Sequence record: MN153797.1
Source: Tunavirus T1
Reading direction: 5' to 3' (one strand)
Length of the DNA stretch: 48,822 nucleotides
The translations under genes and the position numbers were made by a program. This document shows positions 1-48,822 of this stretch, piece by piece; positions within the stretch are counted from its first letter, which is position 1, and every line of letters begins with the position of its first letter. Under the pieces are notes generated by a model. The model was not told where the DNA came from. It searched no databases and saw only the letters and a program-made list of their open reading frames with translations.

Positions 1-448
1 GTTGCATGGTGTGCAACTGTTGATGTGATTGTTTCTTAGAATGCAATGATTGTGAGAGGGGGGATCTAGTGTTACCAGGTTCGCCTGGTAGTCATCTCCA
101 TTTTTAGCAAAAAGTGCTATCGATTACGATTACGCTTGATTGCGTGTTAATCATTGTATATGATTTGCCTAAATCGCAATCGTATACAAAATTACGCCAA
201 ATTACGCCTTATAATATACATATAGATATATGTATATATATAATATATAAGTGTTTTTTTTATTTATATATATAGATACTATTATTTGTAATATGGTTGT
301 ATAGCGTGTCTTTTATGTTAATCGTTGGATGCTCTGATTATGATGCTCATGTTTATATATACAGTAGTTTTATCGGCGCATATTTATTTAGGGAAATCGA
401 TTAACACGATTAACACGATTAACCACACTTAAAATCGCCCCGCAGACC
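1..448. promoter_or_regulatory. Non-coding AT-rich control region with short direct repeats; candidate pac/ori/early promoter region
   Basis: No RBS-led ORF; cgattacg x2 (121-135), aattacgcc x2 (192-209), cgattaacac x3 (399-430), 6-bp-arm palindrome gttgca..tgcaac at 1-17, GTGTAAC-type motifs at 67-73, 473-481, 493-500. Confidence 0.45.
105..119 (-). promoter_or_regulatory. TAGCA-N5-TGCTA box, minus orientation, followed by hairpin accagg-cgaa-cctggt (71-93); no -10 at the usual offset
   Basis: ttagcaaaaagtgcta read on + strand; hairpin read directly. Confidence 0.4.
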
Positions 449-538
449 TTGACACATGCGGGTCGTCGTGTAACACTACGATTAGAGACACGGTGTTACA
501 TGTTAATCATGGTGTATATTGAAACTAAGGAGAAAGCT

Positions 539-1114
539 ATGAGTTCTTACCAGTCAGACGCAGTACAGGCAGCAATCAAGGCAGCTTACGAGAAGGCCGG
601 AGTAACGGTTGAGCAGCGACCGGAGGCAAAAGTGACCGATGTTATCCGGGCCGCCTGCGATAAGCTTTATGGTGATGGCGAGAATACCGTGTTCACATTC
701 GACGCGAATAAGATGGCTGAGGCCGCAGCAAGAAAGTCGATGCCAGACGCTGACGAACATGATGTTGCCAAAGGCGCCGAGTCCTGGTTGCTCGGGAAGA
801 CGGATGAGATTAACGAGAAGTTTAAATCCTCATTCATCACCCCGATCGTTTCTCGACACTTCTCCAAGATCGGCAAGTCGGTCAAGGTGAGCGTGACCAT
901 GAACGATGAGAAGTTGCGAGTCGTTACTATCTCAGTGAGTGACGAAGAAGTTCCGGTGAAGAAGCGCCGCAGCCGGAAAAAAGTCAGCCTGGCTGATTGT
1001 CTGGATTCGTTTGTTCCTGATGTTGATGATCTTGAGAAAGGCGACGTTACTGTAAGCACCGTGCGCGACCTGGTTCGCCAGATGAAAGCGCATATCGAAA
1101 AATGTGGACTGTAA
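539..1114 (+). CDS. hypothetical protein (basic KKRRSRKK patch)
   Basis: In frame with ORF 449..1114; ATG 539 preceded by AAGGAG at 526-531. Confidence 0.5.
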   Translation: MSSYQSDAVQAAIKAAYEKAGVTVEQRPEAKVTDVIRAACDKLYGDGENTVFTFDANKMAEAAARKSMPDADEHDVAKGAESWLLGKTDEINEKFKSSFITPIVSRHFSKIGKSVKVSVTMNDEKLRVVTISVSDEEVPVKKRRSRKKVSLADCLDSFVPDVDDLEKGDVTVSTVRDLVRQMKAHIEKCGL

Positions 1115-1126
1115 GGAGAAGTAATT

Positions 1127-1453
1127 ATGTTTAATATCAAACCATTAACAGAAGCAGAGAAACAGGCTCAGGCCAAGCAAACCGAAAACATCCAAGTGAT
1201 CGCTGATGCGCTGATTGGTAAGAGGTCAATCAAAATAAACCTCGACACTGTTGGTCAGTCATTTTTTACTAAAGGTTTGGATAAGTACGTTATAAATGTG
1301 AAGGCGAGAGACCTGGTGGCGAGAATTCAAAAGCTAAACAATCAAAAGCTAAAGCTCATCAAGGTCGAAGGCAACATGTGCGAAATTGAGAACCTCAGCG
1401 CACCAGACCCGAATAAGTGGGAAATCACCGATGTCGAGTTTATCGTAGAATAG
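1127..1453 (+). CDS. hypothetical protein
   Basis: ORF track; AAGGAG RBS upstream of ATG. Confidence 0.5.
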   Translation: MFNIKPLTEAEKQAQAKQTENIQVIADALIGKRSIKINLDTVGQSFFTKGLDKYVINVKARDLVARIQKLNNQKLKLIKVEGNMCEIENLSAPDPNKWEITDVEFIVE

Positions 1454-1493
1454 CACTTTTTGTTAAAACCGGATCGGGGTATCTTGCTATAGT
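1451..1493 (+). promoter_or_regulatory. Box-dependent promoter: tagcactttttgtta box + TGc-TATAGT (1488-1493)
   Basis: Box centre to -10 start = 30 bp; box TAG is the stop codon of the upstream ORF; -10 lies in hairpin ggggta..tacccc. Confidence 0.55.
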
Positions 1494-1531
1494 TACCCCA
1501 TCAAAACGAGATACCAATCAGAGGAATCACC

Positions 1532-1762
1532 ATGTCAATCGTCAAGAACCAGCAAGCCATCGATTCAACCAATAACAACCGCTTTGCTATTTTCATCACT
1601 CGCGACAACAAGCGATTTGCAGTAAAGGCCGTACCAGGTGGATACAAAACCTACATGGAAGATAACGGAAAGTGGGTGCGGTGCGACAACCTCGCAAACT
1701 TCTTGGTCTGGAACGCAGACCTGCAGGGATTCGATGACATCAGCACTTTAATTGAGGAGTAA
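1532..1762 (+). CDS. hypothetical protein
   Basis: ORF track; RBS gaggaa. Confidence 0.5.
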   Translation: MSIVKNQQAIDSTNNNRFAIFITRDNKRFAVKAVPGGYKTYMEDNGKWVRCDNLANFLVWNADLQGFDDISTLIEE

Positions 1763-1767
1763 TAATC

Positions 1768-1995
1768 ATGCCACGTTACAGCAACCTAACTCAACTAACC
1801 CGCGTCAACGGGCACATGATCCCGGCAAAATCCACTCACTACGCAATGGGAGCAAAGCACGGATTGTATTTCAAATGGCGCGGTCAATGGAACTTCACGG
1901 TTATTCGTAATTTCTACATTAGAGTTACAGGTGATGACCCGCAATCGGTCGTAGAGAACTCAATCGGCGACAACAAGATCGAGGTGCTGAAATGA
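1768..1995 (+). CDS. hypothetical protein
   Basis: ORF track; RBS gaggag. Confidence 0.5.
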   Translation: MPRYSNLTQLTRVNGHMIPAKSTHYAMGAKHGLYFKWRGQWNFTVIRNFYIRVTGDDPQSVVENSIGDNKIEVLK

Positions 1996-2098
1996 ACTTC
2001 AACATAATTGCTTTCTGGTCTGCCGTATGGTTCTTTTGCGTAGGTCATGTTGTGGTTGGAATCGTAATCATGTTGCTACTGTGTGCGGGAGCGTTCGA

Positions 2099-2272
2099 AT
2101 GATGCGGATTCTGATTTGCATGATGGCGGCGGTCGCCATGGCTATCCTGGTAGTGTCCGGCTGCGGCGAGGCCAGGGATAGCTGTCATGAAACCGGGAGC
2201 CAGGTTACTACTTTCGTGATGGTTGGCAACGTATTGCTACCAATAACATCAAATGAAATCACTTGCGAATAG
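2099..2272 (+). CDS. small putative lipoprotein (signal peptide MMRILICMMAAVAMAILVVSGC)
   Basis: Internal ATG of ORF 2027..2272 preceded by gggag; hydrophobic N-terminus ending in lipobox-like VSGC. Confidence 0.4.
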   Translation: MMRILICMMAAVAMAILVVSGCGEARDSCHETGSQVTTFVMVGNVLLPITSNEITCE

Positions 2273-2312
2273 CACTTTTTGTTAAAACTCAACTCCGGGG
2301 TTGCGATATAGT
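2270..2312 (+). promoter_or_regulatory. Box-dependent promoter: tagcactttttgtta + TATAGT (2307-2312)
   Basis: Centre to -10 = 30 bp; -10 in hairpin ggggtt..aacccc; box TAG = upstream stop codon. Confidence 0.55.
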
Positions 2313-2343
2313 AACCCCATCGACAACGAACGAGGACGCAAAC

Positions 2344-2832
2344 ATGAAAATTAAATTACTTAGCAATGGCGGTTACAAGGGATTCACCCGCGACCTGGAA
2401 GCTGACCCTATCGTGGTTGACGCGGTTAAGTGCGACTCAAGTACTGGAGGCTACCGCGTTAAGGTTGATGACCTTGTAAAAGCTGGCGTGTACGATCTTG
2501 ATTATGGCCTGTCGGTTAGCCCGGTATTTGGCCCAGCTGACTTCAACGAGAAAGACGGAACGATGTTCTTTTTTGATTGGGAAGTGAAGGCAAACATCAA
2601 GCCGCGCAAGGTTCGTCTTCTCAGCAATGGCGGCTACCCGATGCGACCAGGTTATGAGAATCGCACGTTCCCGGTTATCGTTGACTTCATTGGGACAACT
2701 GACAACTTGGTATACGTTAGCCATGAGCAACTTAAGGCAGTTGGATTCGTTGGCGGTATGAATAAAGAAGCGCTTTGCTTCTTCCATCGATGTCCAGAGC
2801 CGATCGGTATTGAGTGCGAGTTAGTATACTAA
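2344..2832 (+). CDS. hypothetical protein with internal duplicated motif K(I/V)(K/R)LLSNGGY
   Basis: ATG 2344 in frame with ORF 2263..2832, RBS gagga; repeat seen in translation. Confidence 0.5.
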   Translation: MKIKLLSNGGYKGFTRDLEADPIVVDAVKCDSSTGGYRVKVDDLVKAGVYDLDYGLSVSPVFGPADFNEKDGTMFFFDWEVKANIKPRKVRLLSNGGYPMRPGYENRTFPVIVDFIGTTDNLVYVSHEQLKAVGFVGGMNKEALCFFHRCPEPIGIECELVY

Positions 2833-8395: not shown

Positions 8396-8920
8396 ATGAG
8401 TGAACCTAAGAACGCTCCCGTAGTCCAGGGTGGTAATTTCAAAGAGCTATACAAGAAAAAGTTTGGCACTGTACTCGCGAAAAACCGGGCTATGACGCCA
8501 GAGCAACTATTCGATCTGTCAGTGAAGTATTTCGAATGGGCCGAGGACAATGCGATCAAGGCGTCAGAATCAGCCAGCTTTCAGGGTGGCGTTTATGAGT
8601 CGCTTGTCCATAAGCCGCGCGTCTTCACCTGGACCGGATACCGACTATTCATCGGTGCAAGCGAGGCTGCAATCATTAAGTGGAAGCGAGAGGAAGAATA
8701 CAGCGAGGTTATGGAGTTTGTGGAATCGGTAATCAACGAGCAAAAATTCCAGCTTGCCGCCAACGGTGTTATTAATGCCTCCTTTATCGGTAAGGATCTC
8801 GGAATCGATAAGCCAGCCTCAATCAATATCGAAAACTCGTCAGCTTCCGCATCGACAGTAGTCGCCACTACTGAGGATGCGATGAAAGAGGCGGTAAACA
8901 GCATTCTTGATATGCTTTAA
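8396..8920 (+). CDS. terminase small subunit (positional call)
   Basis: Immediately upstream of terminase large subunit; ATG 8396 preceded by agagga. Confidence 0.5.
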   Translation: MSEPKNAPVVQGGNFKELYKKKFGTVLAKNRAMTPEQLFDLSVKYFEWAEDNAIKASESASFQGGVYESLVHKPRVFTWTGYRLFIGASEAAIIKWKREEEYSEVMEFVESVINEQKFQLAANGVINASFIGKDLGIDKPASINIENSSASASTVVATTEDAMKEAVNSILDML

Positions 8921-8959
8921 CTTTAGGGGCGCGAGAGCGCCCACATGGGAGACTTAATC

Positions 8960-10528
8960 ATGATTCAATGGGAAGACCTTAACGCAACGCAGAAGTTAGC
9001 GATCAAGAAAATGAGCGAGGCCAATTTCGAAAAAATGATTCGGATCTGGTTCCAACTTATGCAGGCGCAGCAGTTCCAGCCTAACTGGCATCACCTTTAC
9101 CTATGTCACGAAGTGGAGGAAATTATTGCAGGGCGGCGAGGGAATACAATCTTTAACGTCACACCAGGTTCCGGTAAAACTGAAGTGTTCTCAATTCACC
9201 TTCCGGTGTACGCAATGCTTAAGTGTAAGAAGGTGCGAAACCTTAACGTGTCGTTTGCTGACAGCCTGGTTAAGCGTAACAGTAAGCGCGTATGTGAGAT
9301 TATCAGCAGCAACGAATTTCAAGAGCTATGGCCTTGCAAGTTCGGTACATCGAAAGATGAGGAGATGCAGGTTCTTAACGAAGATGGAAAGGTTTGGTTT
9401 GAGTTGATATCCGCAGCGGCTGGCGGTCGTATTACTGGTTCGCGTGGTGGCTACATGACGCCGGGATTCTCGGGGATGGTAATGCTAGACGATATCGACA
9501 AGCCTGATGATATGTTCTCAAAGGTTAAGCGTGAGCGTACGCACATGCTATTGAAAAACACCATCCGTTCCCGTCGTATGCATAACGAGACGCCTATTAT
9601 TGCAATTCAGCAGCGACTACATGCTCAGGATTCAACCTGGTTCATGATGAATGGCGGTATGGGTATTGAGTTTGACCAAATCTCAATACCGGCGCTGGTG
9701 ACGGAAGAATACGGAAAGACACTTCCTGATTGGTTGCAGCCTTACTTTGAGCGTGATGTTTTATCGTCTGAGTATGTAGAATTGGATGGCGTTAAGCATT
9801 ACTCTTTTTGGCCAAGCAAGGAAAGCGTTCACGACCTGTTGGCGTTACGAGAAGCAGATCAGTATACCTTTGATTCTCAGTATCAGCAGAAACCGATCGC
9901 GCTGGGTGGCTCCGTGTTTAACTCAGAGTGGTGGACTTATTACGGCAGCAGTCTTGACGCTGACGAGCCAGATCCGGGTAAATATGATTACCGATTCATC
10001 ACTGCCGATACCGCTCAGAAGACAGGCGAGCTAAACGACTACACGGTATTTTGTTTGTGGGGCAAGAAGAATGATAAGGTTTACTTTATCGACGGCATTC
10101 GCGGAAAGTGGGAAGCGCCGGATATGGAGAGGCAATTTACAGCTTTCGTCAATCAGGCATGGAGGCACAATAAATCAATGGGGGTACTTCGTAAAATTTA
10201 TGTGGAAGATAAGGCGAGCGGTACGGGCTTAATCCAGAACCTCAGGAAAAAGACCCCGATCTCAATCACTCCATTGCAGCGTAACAAAGACAAAGTTACC
10301 CGAGCTATGGATGCTCAGCCAGTTATTAAAGCCGGGCGCGTGGTTCTGCCAGAAGAGCACCCTATGCTTGCTGAAATTATCGCTGAACACAGTGCCTTCA
10401 CTTACGATGACACCCATCCGCATGATGATATCGTCGATAACTTCATGGATGCGGCGAACATCGAATTGCTGACCATTGATGATCCTATCGAGAGAATGAA
10501 GCGACTCGCCGGGATGGTTAAGCGGTAA
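8960..10528 (+). CDS. terminase large subunit
   Basis: 527-aa ORF with terminase-like ATPase and nuclease regions (family recognised from sequence); ATG 8960 has RBS gggaga, ORF-track start 8945 is the alternative. Confidence 0.75.
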   Translation: MIQWEDLNATQKLAIKKMSEANFEKMIRIWFQLMQAQQFQPNWHHLYLCHEVEEIIAGRRGNTIFNVTPGSGKTEVFSIHLPVYAMLKCKKVRNLNVSFADSLVKRNSKRVCEIISSNEFQELWPCKFGTSKDEEMQVLNEDGKVWFELISAAAGGRITGSRGGYMTPGFSGMVMLDDIDKPDDMFSKVKRERTHMLLKNTIRSRRMHNETPIIAIQQRLHAQDSTWFMMNGGMGIEFDQISIPALVTEEYGKTLPDWLQPYFERDVLSSEYVELDGVKHYSFWPSKESVHDLLALREADQYTFDSQYQQKPIALGGSVFNSEWWTYYGSSLDADEPDPGKYDYRFITADTAQKTGELNDYTVFCLWGKKNDKVYFIDGIRGKWEAPDMERQFTAFVNQAWRHNKSMGVLRKIYVEDKASGTGLIQNLRKKTPISITPLQRNKDKVTRAMDAQPVIKAGRVVLPEEHPMLAEIIAEHSAFTYDDTHPHDDIVDNFMDAANIELLTIDDPIERMKRLAGMVKR

Positions 10529-29602: not shown

Positions 29603-29625
29603 GCCCCTTGCGGGGCTTTTATTTT
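29603..29625. terminator. Bidirectional terminator between convergent genes
   Basis: gcccc-ttgc-ggggc with T-runs on both strands. Confidence 0.6.
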
Positions 29626-29851
29626 ATATCGAGCAATCGTGAGATTTGAAGTTTTTCTCTGATACATAGTTGAAGGAGAATGGGTATCCAGCACGCAATA
29701 CCATCTCCTTTCCGCGCATCTTAGATCCAAAAACGTAAACCGAGTACTCCGCGCCGCCTGATTCATAAATTGCCGTGCAAGTGCGCTCAGGCATCGATGA
29801 GCAACCAGTCAGGATGAATGCCGCAGCGATAACGGTGATTAACTTTTTCAT
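29624..29851 (-). CDS. cor: Cor-like small lipoprotein (candidate superinfection exclusion / receptor blocking)
   Basis: 75 aa; signal peptide MKKLITVIAAAFILTGC with lipobox LTGC; convergent with tail genes. Confidence 0.5.
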   Translation of the reverse strand: MKKLITVIAAAFILTGCSSMPERTCTAIYESGGAEYSVYVFGSKMRGKEMVLRAGYPFSFNYVSEKNFKSHDCSI

Positions 29852-30378
29852 TTGTATGTCCTCGTCGTTAGTGTGATTGCATTGTATGTCGCATTTACTT
29901 TTATTGCAATAGAGCGATTACAATTTTTTTCGTGTAACAGGCGTATATTTTTGTAACCGGAATGGGTGTTACAAAATCGCCTCCATCCGACCGCAGGGAG
30001 ATATGATAAAAACTCTATATAATATATATAGATAGATAATATTTAATTTTAGCTTTATATATATAATTATTGTTGTGTAACAGTTGTATATCGTGTAACA
30101 GGTGATTTGATTGATTCGTCAAATTTCTATCATGTATGTTCAAAATTTAATCAATCTGGATTCTATTTGTAGGTATCTCTGTATTTCTAATAAAAAGCGG
30201 TTACAAGTGTTACGCAATAGACAGCGCATAAAAATCTACTTAAGCCATTGATTCTGTTGATGCTGGTTGTAACTTGAGCAATATAGACACGCAATTACAC
30301 ACTGATTACATGTATTCGATTGACTAAACGCTGTTAATGGCTATAATGGATTCATCGTAAACGAAGGAGATAAACGCA
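29852..30378. promoter_or_regulatory. AT-rich divergent control region with repeated GTGTAACA-type motifs
   Basis: cgtgtaacag at about 29931, 30078, 30098; ggtgttaca at about 29955; gtgttacg at about 30210; poly-AT tracts 30010-30060. Confidence 0.45.
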
Positions 30379-31443
30379 ATGTTCCATGTATTCACATCAA
30401 GCCAGCTTTCTAACGACGAGTATCATAGAAACGAAGGTTGGGCGTCAGAGTATGTAAGCGGATCGAGTCTTGCAGAAATTTATCAGACCTGCCCTGCTAA
30501 CTGGAGATTCAAGAAGAACGAGACAACGAAAACTCTGGAGTTCGGTACTCAGTCGCACACCAACTTTGAGAGTCGAGATCTGTTTACTGCAACGTATGCT
30601 AGATGCCCTGCTCCGTCAGAGTTTAAGGATCTGATTACTTCGCAGGCGGCGCTGGCAGCAAAATTAAAATCATTCGGCCTGAAAGGTACATCCGGTAAGC
30701 AGTACCCGGACCTCATCAAAATGATGGTTGATTGTGGTGAAGAACTCAACGTTCAATACCTGATTGAACTGATCGCAGAAGCTGAGGCCCGTGCTGAAGG
30801 AAAACAACTTGTTGACGCGGACAAATACGACGCTTGCATGAAGATGAGAGTCATCCTTGAGCAGAATCCCGATCATGAAGCGTGCATCAACAGTGAAACG
30901 GCGCAGCGTGAGATTTCAATCTTCGGTGAGATATCCGGCGTAAAAGTTAAGGTTCGACTTGACCATCTGGACTACAAAGAGAATGTTCCAGGTCGTGTCC
31001 TGACTGGTTATGATGAGAATGGCGATCCGGTATTTGAAGACGTAATTTTCCCGGAAGCACTGATTATCACAGATTTCAAAACTACGATGAGCGCCAACCC
31101 GTTAGAGTTCCCGAGACTGGCATACAATCACGGCTATTACCTGAAGATGGCATTGCAGCATGACCTGCTACGACGCGCAATCCAGGCTGGAGCTTTTGAA
31201 GGTAACTTCCCGGAAGACATTCCGATCGTGGTTCGATTGCTTGCGCAGGAGAAAAAAGAGCCTTATATCGCACTGGCTTACCGTATGACTATGGAGCAAA
31301 TCAGGATAGGTCGTAACCAGTACATTAGCGTAGTCCACACTTACAAGGCTTGCTCTGAAATGGATGTTTGGCCTGGGTACGCTGGCGACGCAAGCGAGAT
31401 CGAACTTGAAACGCCATCATGGGTGCGTTACCAAAATAAGTAA
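30379..31443 (+). CDS. recombination exonuclease (PD-(D/E)XK, RecB/RecE-like)
   Basis: Motif IITDFKTT resembles RecB-family (I/V)xDYKT; sits upstream of Erf and SSB. Confidence 0.5.
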   Translation: MFHVFTSSQLSNDEYHRNEGWASEYVSGSSLAEIYQTCPANWRFKKNETTKTLEFGTQSHTNFESRDLFTATYARCPAPSEFKDLITSQAALAAKLKSFGLKGTSGKQYPDLIKMMVDCGEELNVQYLIELIAEAEARAEGKQLVDADKYDACMKMRVILEQNPDHEACINSETAQREISIFGEISGVKVKVRLDHLDYKENVPGRVLTGYDENGDPVFEDVIFPEALIITDFKTTMSANPLEFPRLAYNHGYYLKMALQHDLLRRAIQAGAFEGNFPEDIPIVVRLLAQEKKEPYIALAYRMTMEQIRIGRNQYISVVHTYKACSEMDVWPGYAGDASEIELETPSWVRYQNK

Positions 31444-48660: not shown

Positions 48661-48693
48661 AATACTTTCCTCGTTTACTGTTGATGTGATGAA

Positions 48694-48736
48694 TCATACC
48701 CAGTAGACATGGATAAGTCGTTAGCAAAAAATGCTA
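48694..48736 (-). promoter_or_regulatory. Box-dependent promoter (minus): tagcattttttgcta + TATGAT (48699-48694)
   Basis: Centre to -10 = 30 bp. Confidence 0.5.
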
Positions 48737-48822
48737 TTCCAATAATTGCTCATTATTCCATCAATACTGGAATATCTGGAATAATCACGATCATGATTGA
48801 TCTCTAATGATGAGATGTGATT

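Follow-up and report, generated by a model that had tools for sequence, protein, structure and literature searches.

A candidate origin-like cassette of exchangeable repeat words beside the probable packaging start in the left-end non-coding gap of coliphage T1

Tunavirus T1 is a classic T phage. Its sequence record MN153797.1, analyzed here as one window of 48,822 nucleotides, begins with a repeat-rich stretch (positions 1-448) that an earlier note, made from the letters alone, had described as possibly the packaging or early control region. What do these repeats serve: the packaging of DNA, the control of early genes, the start of replication, or nothing in particular? The comparison of T1 with its relatives indicates that they belong to two different modules. 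One, block A, is shared by the whole family; as far as its sequence tells, it is probably where packaging starts and where the leftward promoters lie. The other, cassette B, consists of short words that are exchanged between phages together with the adjacent gene, orf77, and we tentatively read it as an origin-like element with its own binding protein, a reading to which sequence comparison and a structural model lend slightly less than an even chance. All positions are whole-window (unit genome) coordinates of MN153797.1, and a prefix w marks a window position.

The window represents coliphage T1, as it matches NC_005833, AY216660, and MK213796 at 99.7-99.8% identity over the 1200 bases of its left end and the 1023 of its right end; within 1-538, a single base departs from the reference. 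All three records begin at the same base as the window, and the circular Lg3 record runs from the equivalent of 48822 straight into that of base 1. The window is thus one unit genome, cut at the conventional start of T1 and without a terminal duplication. This agrees with the earlier view of a full genome opened near a terminus. The view that genes diverge from here was likewise correct, with plus-strand genes from 539 and a minus-strand cluster up to 48660, and each direction has a promoter, the rightward one being the conserved P_R (449-477) and the leftward one a predicted promoter of the box type (48736-48693). The feature is not confined to 1-448, though. The non-coding gap between the divergent early operons runs on through 48661..48822 and comprises, with 1..538, 700 bp, most of which is the region 1-448. 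Its length is 665-702 bp in all relatives examined (at least 10), whichever gene adjoins it on the left. RefSeq and MK213796 annotate 1..2800 as a repeat region (terminal redundancy). There is no credible open reading frame in the gap, just non-ATG, AT-rich reading frames; no tRNA or tmRNA genes were found, and an Rfam scan of 1-1200 gave no hit at E<=1.

The gap was aligned in 15 Tunavirus genomes, and identity was compared between and within allele groups. Block A (48721-w118) was 95-100% identical between groups. Identity between groups fell to 25-45% at 139-178, 319-338, 399-418, and 499-518 (83-100% within group), and these low-identity segments coincide exactly with short repeat words. 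Phage SH6 retains block A, while everything from about w125 to the end of the first gene is replaced in it. As SH6 keeps one part and replaces the other, and as identity drops at the words, the gap can be divided into the family-wide block A (about 48690 to w120) and the exchangeable cassette B (about w125 to 1114). The latter is swapped as a unit, has 8-9-bp words in a fixed layout around an AT core, and ends with P_R and orf77. In T1, this side of the gap contains the following features:

121..208, no strand: left arm, with CGATTA twice at 121-134, TGTTAATCA at 145-153 (a minus-strand copy of GATTAACA), and AAATTACGCC twice in tandem at 189-208, all allele-specific
209-290: AT tract, 88-93% AT, forming the AT core
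296..309, plus strand: shared block GTTGTATAGCGTGT, present also at 30082-30095 and, as GTATAGCGTGT, in TLS
316..324, minus strand: inverted word copy of CGATTAACA; CTAGACA (pSf-2), CGGTTGCA (SH6), or GGTGTACAC (IME347) stands at the same offset
349..366, no strand: conserved block ATGTTTATATATACAGTA, common to the T1-type and pSf-2-type alleles
398..424, plus strand: main iteron-like array CGATTAACA-CGATTAACA-CGATTAACC with a 9-bp period, ending 25 bp upstream of the -35 of P_R
449..477, plus strand: P_R, rightward early promoter, TTGACA at 449-454, 14 nt, extended -10 TGtAACACT at 469-477
501..509, minus strand: inverted word copy TGATTAACA, situated in the leader of orf77, after P_R and ahead of the ribosome-binding site
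539..1114, plus strand: orf77 (T1p77, 191 aa; phrog_11083), first gene of the rightward operon

The word of the T1 type can be written (C)GATTAAC(A), and GATTAAC occurs at 146(-), 317(-), 399/408/417(+), and 502(-). The pSf-2/Shfl1 type has the same layout built of another word, CTAGACA(A), at about 169(-), 319(-), 404/412(+), and 520(+), whereas the SH6 type has CGGTTGCA at 306(-), 410(+), and 419(+), with three tandem copies at a 9-bp period and one inverted copy. A fourth, less clean word set (GTGTACAC/CTGTATA) is found at equivalent offsets in IME347. Even TLS, a member of another subfamily, follows this order, with CGTGAACA in tandem and once inverted, an AT core, and a sigma-70 promoter. 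The main array, which is 100% conserved within the T1 type, has only 30% identity between alleles, its counterparts being CTAGACAG-CTAGACAA in the pSf-2 type, CGGTTGCAT-CGGTTGCAC-TGGTTACAA in the SH6 type, and CGTGAACA twice in TLS. In the left arm, identity at 139-178 is 40-45% between alleles and 83-99% within an allele, and the pSf-2 type has TGTCTAG there. In the leader of the pSf-2 type, TAGACAA at about 520 overlaps the ribosome-binding site; the T1 leader copy at 501..509 is a candidate autoregulatory site, judging by its position. The AT core follows another pattern: 219-278 is 95-100% identical between groups, and 209-290 is 100% identical in the T1 and pSf-2 types, whereas SH6 and TLS have a different sequence there that is still AT-rich. 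Two further loci fit the pairing of words and protein. In an SH6-type locus with a 69%-identical protein, the three words are kept exactly while the flanks have drifted, and the mosaic phage SsoS_008, which has a pSf-2-type protein, carries CTAGACA words, as predicted. About 90 nt upstream of its orf77 homologue, vB_SsoS_008 has a T1-type leader, TGTTAATCATGGTGTATATTGAAACTAAGGAGAAAGCT, followed by a pSf-2-type leader and ribosome-binding site, as if recombination had left a scar where the word array ends on its right side.

Could such repeats have arisen by chance? The repeats that had been listed for the left end do exist, all of them where they had been placed or within 1-2 bases. For the reported pair of cgattacg, what holds is a tandem of CGATTA at 121-134; as read, the two cgattacg copies overlap by 2 nt. 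An account without any dedicated function would see in them products of chance or slippage in an AT-rich promoter spacer, and in the allele differences neutral mosaic divergence. Short repeats are indeed common in AT-rich DNA, a hairpin with 6-bp arms is per se at chance level (about one per 448 bp in the T1 genome), and generic promoter and terminator scans revealed no enrichment in the region. However, the 700-bp gap holds all but one of the 6 genome copies of GATTAACA, 5 as compared with 0.09 expected from genome density, i.e., about 50-fold above expectation, and both genome copies of ATTACGCC, as well as both of TGATGTGAT, are in the gap. Moreover, the same positions and orientations are kept in four to five alleles with different words, the words are kept perfectly while their flanks diverge, and the non-coding blocks are conserved as much as the neighboring genes or more. 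We therefore consider an absence of function very improbable. The distribution of the words follows the allele, too: 5 of 8 copies of GATTAACA are in the gap in Lg3, and the gaps of SA32RD and BIFF lack this word, whereas all three copies of CTAGACAA are in the gap in SA32RD and BIFF and none is found anywhere in T1 or Lg3.

As the words differ between phages of the same hosts, the protein that reads them should be phage-encoded and allele-specific. We compared the open reading frames of T1, genome-wide, with those of Lg3 (same allele) and of SA32RD and BIFF (other allele). The large terminase subunit (TerL), the primase, and the helicase were 95-100% identical in both kinds of comparison, and the small terminase subunit (TerS), TerL, primase, and helicase can be discarded as word readers, being 95-100% identical across alleles. 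Among the T1 reading frames, only orf77 and orf70 divide according to the allele. Of these two, orf70 fails, since ISF002 has T1-type words but just 58% orf70 identity, which leaves orf77 as the sole T1 protein that tracks the word. This adjacent gene co-varies with the repeats in three clean alleles, in IME347 as a less clean fourth, and TLS has a positional analogue.

Within the orf77 protein, the N-terminal 135 residues or so are allele-specific, while a KKRRSRKK patch and the C-terminus are conserved, and the SH6-type protein is a homologue over the full length (hhalign probability 97.5%, E 8e-12). Its AlphaFold2 model (predicted local distance difference test, 76) weakly resembles the winged helix of RepE/Rep proteins, the best, weak structural matches being RepE, RepA, pi, and RctB. 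Neither a functional label nor relatives beyond T1-like phages emerged from Pfam, PHROGs, a PDB sequence profile, or a merged-profile search of 5.8 billion proteins; the orf77 family is confined to T1-like phages and has a sub-threshold match to DUF7174, and no Rep_3-type sequence signature was found. The co-variation and the model make orf77 a candidate word-binding, origin-binding protein. When TLS gp01 was considered as an orf77 homologue, hhalign gave no support, and there was a weak fold match at most. Residues of about 158-178 (window about 1010-1075) occur as two C-terminal sub-types, PDIDDLEKGDVTVSTVRDLV and VDVSKLGDSELMVRDVNEIV, which assort independently of the N-terminal allele, indicating recombination within orf77.

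Is the repeat-rich region the packaging site (pac)? The packaging mode is headful with limited permutation. T1 pac has been placed in the left-end non-coding region (PMC7718038). The pac of TLS was mapped by restriction digests, and the TLS record is opened at that pac; its start lies in the equivalent gap, 588 nt upstream of the gene that is positionally equivalent to orf77, and at this start there is a run of five TGATT. With regard to the termini of related genomes, whose comparison had been proposed earlier, TLS is opened at the equivalent place. It could be thought, then, that pac is the entire region, words of the CGATTAACA type included, with the small terminase bound to repeats on either side of a cleavage zone, in the manner of P1 and SPP1. 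The reference is opened here, 1..2800 carries the terminal repeat annotation, published statements and the TLS mapping point to this place, and repeats around a central zone generally resemble the pac sites of P1 and SPP1. Nevertheless, TerS is 98-100% identical across phages with three word sets, and 99.4% identical in SH6 despite its different cassette B, so that cassette B (w125-448) is neither conserved nor co-varying with TerS. As CGATTACG, AATTACGCC, and CGATTAACAC are replaced by other words in relatives with 98-100% identical TerS, they cannot be the TerS site. In P22, SPP1, Sf6, and P1, pac lies in or beside the small-terminase gene, which is a typical but not an obligatory feature; in T1, terS (8396-8920; terS and terL together span 8396-10528) is 8.4 kb away from the gap. 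Packaging by the whole region is accordingly improbable in our view. Block A is the sole part of the gap conserved alongside TerS, and hence pac, if within the gap, must lie in block A. Such joint conservation is permissive rather than probative, as both block A (48690-w120) and TerS are conserved throughout.

The earlier alternative of packaging or early control therefore stands for the conserved part left of about w120 and fails for the repeat-rich part, in which the words co-vary with orf77, not with TerS. The expectation that the repeats would be conserved in relatives has a similarly divided outcome: the block A repeats are kept at 95-100%, and the listed words are replaced in other alleles. 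Record starts of relatives at w55, w58, and w69 were considered as physical ends and rejected, because SH2 and Shfl1 continue through this point without a break and the start of S2_02 stems from an overlap in assembly. In the record of Shigella phage S2_02, the first 127 bp recur at the very end, which looks like an untrimmed assembler k-mer overlap and not a terminal repeat. Block A and its border contain these features:

48693..48736, minus strand: P_L1, predicted leftward promoter, with the degenerate 21-nt box TAGCATTTTTTGCTA at 48736->48722, a 23-nt spacer, and -10 TATGAT at 48698->48693
48735..48783, no strand: heptamer array, TATTCCA twice and then TGGAATA twice, in inverted pairs, invariant across orf77 alleles
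48818..48822, wrapping into bases 1-2, plus strand: TGATTGT copy 1
1-17: palindrome GTTGCA-N5-TGCAAC
26-32 and 47-53, plus strand: TGATTGT copies 2 and 3
53..66, no strand: conserved purine/G run GAGAGGGGGGATC, which holds the sole GATC of 1-538 (63-66)
67..122, minus strand: box-hairpin module, possible weak promoter P_L2, with the 21-nt repeat at 122->102 and its core TAGCACTTTTTGCTA at 119->105
72-89: hairpin TACCAGG-TTCG-CCTGGTA
105-119: palindromic box TAGCAAAAAGTGCTA
69, and on the cassette B side 468 and 493: GTGTTAC/GTGTAAC

Several of these suit a packaging start. The heptamer TATTCCA/TGGAATA has 4 of its 12 genome copies in the array, as compared with 0.17 expected, and the array is 97-100% identical between alleles; it might be bound by some conserved protein, such as TerS (in pac recognition) or a regulator of P_L. 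The three TGATTGT direct repeats (ACAATCA at -4, 26, and 47) have spacings of 30 and 21 bp, which puts them on one helical face. The palindrome at 1-17 is bordered by an 11-nt direct repeat, ATGTGATTGTT, at 48815-3 and 23-33. It deserves attention through the invariance of its core, TTGCATGGTGTGCAAC, which is essentially unchanged in 10 relatives, and not through the frequency of hairpins; by its place and conservation it is a candidate for the cleavage or recognition zone on the pac side. Conserved arrays on both sides of the conventional start (TGGAATA four times, TGATTGT three times) make block A similar to P1 pac and to SPP1 pacL/pacC/pacR. The differences are the 8.4 kb between the T1 candidate and terS and the failure of the cassette-B repeats to co-vary with TerS.

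If cassette B is not pac, its architecture still resembles something known. The words cluster at a single locus, with 5-6 copies in 400 bp, and an AT-rich element, 209-290, adjoins them. This element is the least stable duplex of the genome (rank 1 at windows of 40-100 bp, z = 5.3-6.2), which makes it a candidate DNA-unwinding element. Specific repeated words beside an AT-rich unwinding element, an adjacent initiator gene, a word copy near its own promoter that could autoregulate, and a co-evolving specificity of protein and repeat are features that T1 shares with iteron origins (F ori2/RepE, pPS10 RepA, and R6K pi). In an origin of this kind, the orf77 protein would be made first, from P_R, and would bind the words via its allele-specific N-terminal domain. 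The facing word arrays and orf77 could then loop or wrap the AT core, and the back-to-back promoters would supply negative supercoiling that helps this core to melt. The conserved C-terminal part of orf77 would recruit the T1 helicase and primase, which are conserved as well, and the word copy in the leader might mediate autoregulation of orf77. Cassette B would thus be a replication origin with its own initiator, sited beside pac.

A second AT-core element was found at 29852-30378, in a 527-bp divergent gap between a minus-strand gene (29624-29851) and a recE-like gene (30379-31443). Among the duplexes of the genome, its segment 30000-30080 comes second in instability (z 5.5). The element is flanked by GTGTAACAG three times and GTGTTAC twice, shares GTTGTATAnCGTGT with the left-end element, and includes, at 30319-30347, a strong TTGACT-N17-TATAAT. 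Lg3, SA32RD, and BIFF, and thus both allele groups, have it in almost unchanged form, and the two AT-core elements may be paralogous.

There are several points that weigh against an origin in cassette B. The co-variation of words and orf77 is confounded by physical linkage, as they are adjacent and inherited as one recombination block. The words, 8-9 bp in 5-6 copies, are shorter and fewer than classical iterons of 17-22 bp. No DnaA-box or integration host factor (IHF) consensus was found in the region, with one 8/9 DnaA-like match at 419-427, although such sites are not obligatory for phage origins. TLS gp01 has no sequence homology to orf77. The invariant 30-kb element, lying beside recombination and replication genes, may itself be the real origin or a second one. 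Finally, three word copies just upstream of P_R and one in the leader would suit a transcriptional autoregulator equally well.

The last point leads to the main rival explanation, in which cassette B is an early-operator cassette: orf77 would be an allele-specific transcription regulator, the words its operators, and the AT core looped, so that P_R, and possibly the leftward promoters, would be controlled in a manner similar to lambdoid immunity, with no role in replication. P_R itself was missed by a strict consensus scan owing to its weak -10, but its ATTGACA is kept in every allele, and SA32RD and SA30RD carry a promoter annotation at the homologous site. Words at about -50 to -85 from P_R and in the leader, and the place of orf77 at the head of the operon, would be appropriate for such a regulator. 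Yet the words are asymmetric and in direct tandem instead of being palindromic operators, the -35 and -10 of P_R are free of them, and they are absent from all other promoters of the genome. The exchange of the cassette as a whole is reminiscent of immunity regions, and the gap lies between divergent early promoters, as does the second AT core, so that the AT cores may be promoter-associated UP or curved DNA; against that, the word copies at -165 and -340 from P_R border the most meltable segment of the genome. No helix-turn-helix or other regulator family is detectable in orf77, and its best structural matches are replication initiators, not repressors. We regard the operator explanation as unlikely, if far from negligible. 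Should it be true, the same data would pinpoint an early-switch regulator and its operators.

Returning to the origin-like reading of cassette B, the known systems differ from T1 in instructive ways. Unlike the iterons of plasmids, which have 17-22 bp at a period of about 22 bp, the T1 words have 8-9 bp at a 9-bp period and form split arrays that face each other across the AT core, with no DnaA or IHF sites and no Rep_3-type signature, and the element belongs to a virulent phage, in which it stands beside pac. In the λ O protein, DNA is bound by the N-terminal part, which is type-specific, and the replication machinery is contacted by the C-terminal part, which is conserved. A similar division of type-specific and conserved parts is seen in orf77, and λ ori resembles the T1 element also in its iterons beside an AT-rich tract, in the aid that nearby transcription gives to activation, and in the exchangeability of ori-initiator pairs. 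However, λ iterons lie inside the O gene, have 18-19 bp, and possess internal symmetry, whereas in T1 asymmetric words precede the gene; orf77 showed no detectable sequence homology to λ O. The ori/crr octamers of P4 that are bound by alpha are, too, short (8-bp) asymmetric words in several copies and both orientations. P4 alpha is a primase-helicase fusion with its own origin-binding domain, while in T1 neither the primase nor the helicase varies along with the words.

Papers on relatives report that no origin or iterons were found in T1-like phages (PMC7718038, PMC11447400). Already known are the sequence, the repeat region label, and the 21-nt box of block A; the two-module structure, the co-variation of words with orf77, and the origin-like reading are new relative to the accessible literature. 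The words and AT core at 125-430 together with orf77 are a concrete, testable candidate pair, pac is narrowed to the conserved block around base 1, and the modular cassette accounts for a recombination hotspot with discrete alleles at the left-end locus. This is of relevance to the engineering and rebooting of T1-like phages and to incompatibility or exclusion between co-infecting relatives. In a wider and rather doubtful extension, the orf77 family (phrog_11083) would be an unrecognized class of phage origin-binding initiators, with exchangeable origin-initiator cassettes beside pac; the start of replication, divergent early transcription, and the start of packaging would be united in one 700-bp hub, and the 30.0-kb element would be a second origin for the conserved machinery.

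The leftward side of the gap brings in another repeat. A 21-nt intergenic repeat of the Drexlerviridae, aaATAGCACnnnTTGnTAAAA, has been described for TLS and noted for T1 (German et al. 2024, PMC11447400), where its function figures among the open questions. In the genome as a whole, the palindrome TAGCA-N5-TGCTA (with at most 1 mismatch) occurs at 21 sites, as compared with 1.4 expected, including 1451, 2270, 3536, 4865, 6532, 36431, 38940, 41943, and 47604. About 22 nt downstream of each of these boxes there is a TATAGT-like -10, which often lies within or beside a dyad. By its sequence, the segment 48693..48736 is a predicted leftward promoter, P_L1. Its box, ~22-nt spacer, and -10 are arranged as in about 19 other genome boxes, and the layout is kept in all relatives. 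The copy at 48736->48722 is a degenerate member of the repeat, about 76 nt upstream of the orf1 start codon (48660), a distance that agrees with the description for TLS (PMC11447400).

The second copy in the gap belongs to the box-hairpin module. The box at 122->102 reads cgATAGCACTTTTTGCTAAAA, which fits the consensus of the 21-nt repeat; it is intergenic and oriented with transcription, as are nearly all of the 21 genome copies. It differs from the canonical repeat in having a 30-nt instead of a ~22-nt spacer (box core 105-119), and there is no gene within 260 nt. The spacer contains the hairpin TACCAGG-CGAA-CCTGGTA (89->72) and is followed by a weak -10-like TAACAC. Since it is 8 nt longer than in canonical boxes, promoter activity of P_L2 is uncertain. 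The hairpin and box fold better than shuffled sequences (z = -3.6, single-strand DNA fold), and the module 67..122 is 95-100% conserved across all alleles. Its 9-mer GTAACACTA (75->67) is an inverted copy of the -10 region of P_R (67-75 / 470-478).

With regard to the boxes in general, the palindrome TAGCA-N5-TGCTA comes to lie, through the fixed ~22-nt spacing, at about -42, which is where class-II activator sites are located. The dyad arms at the -10 vary among box sites, as if through compensatory change. Both the fixed spacing and the dyads go unmentioned in the published descriptions that are accessible.

Some minor observations concern the composition and the borders of the gap. GC skew follows the direction of transcription and nothing else. 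The segment 67-538 (about 470 bp) has no GATC, with about 2.3 expected and 237 GATC sites in T1, and block A has three, at 48789, 48799, and 63, numbers that are too small for significance. The gene to the left of the gap is a Dcm-like cytosine methylase in most relatives, whereas T1 and Lg3 have small open reading frames there, ULIM2 has a NinC-like gene, and an HNH endonuclease is nearby in S2_02. As the neighboring gene varies while the length of the gap is constant, the left border of the gap is an insertion hotspot.

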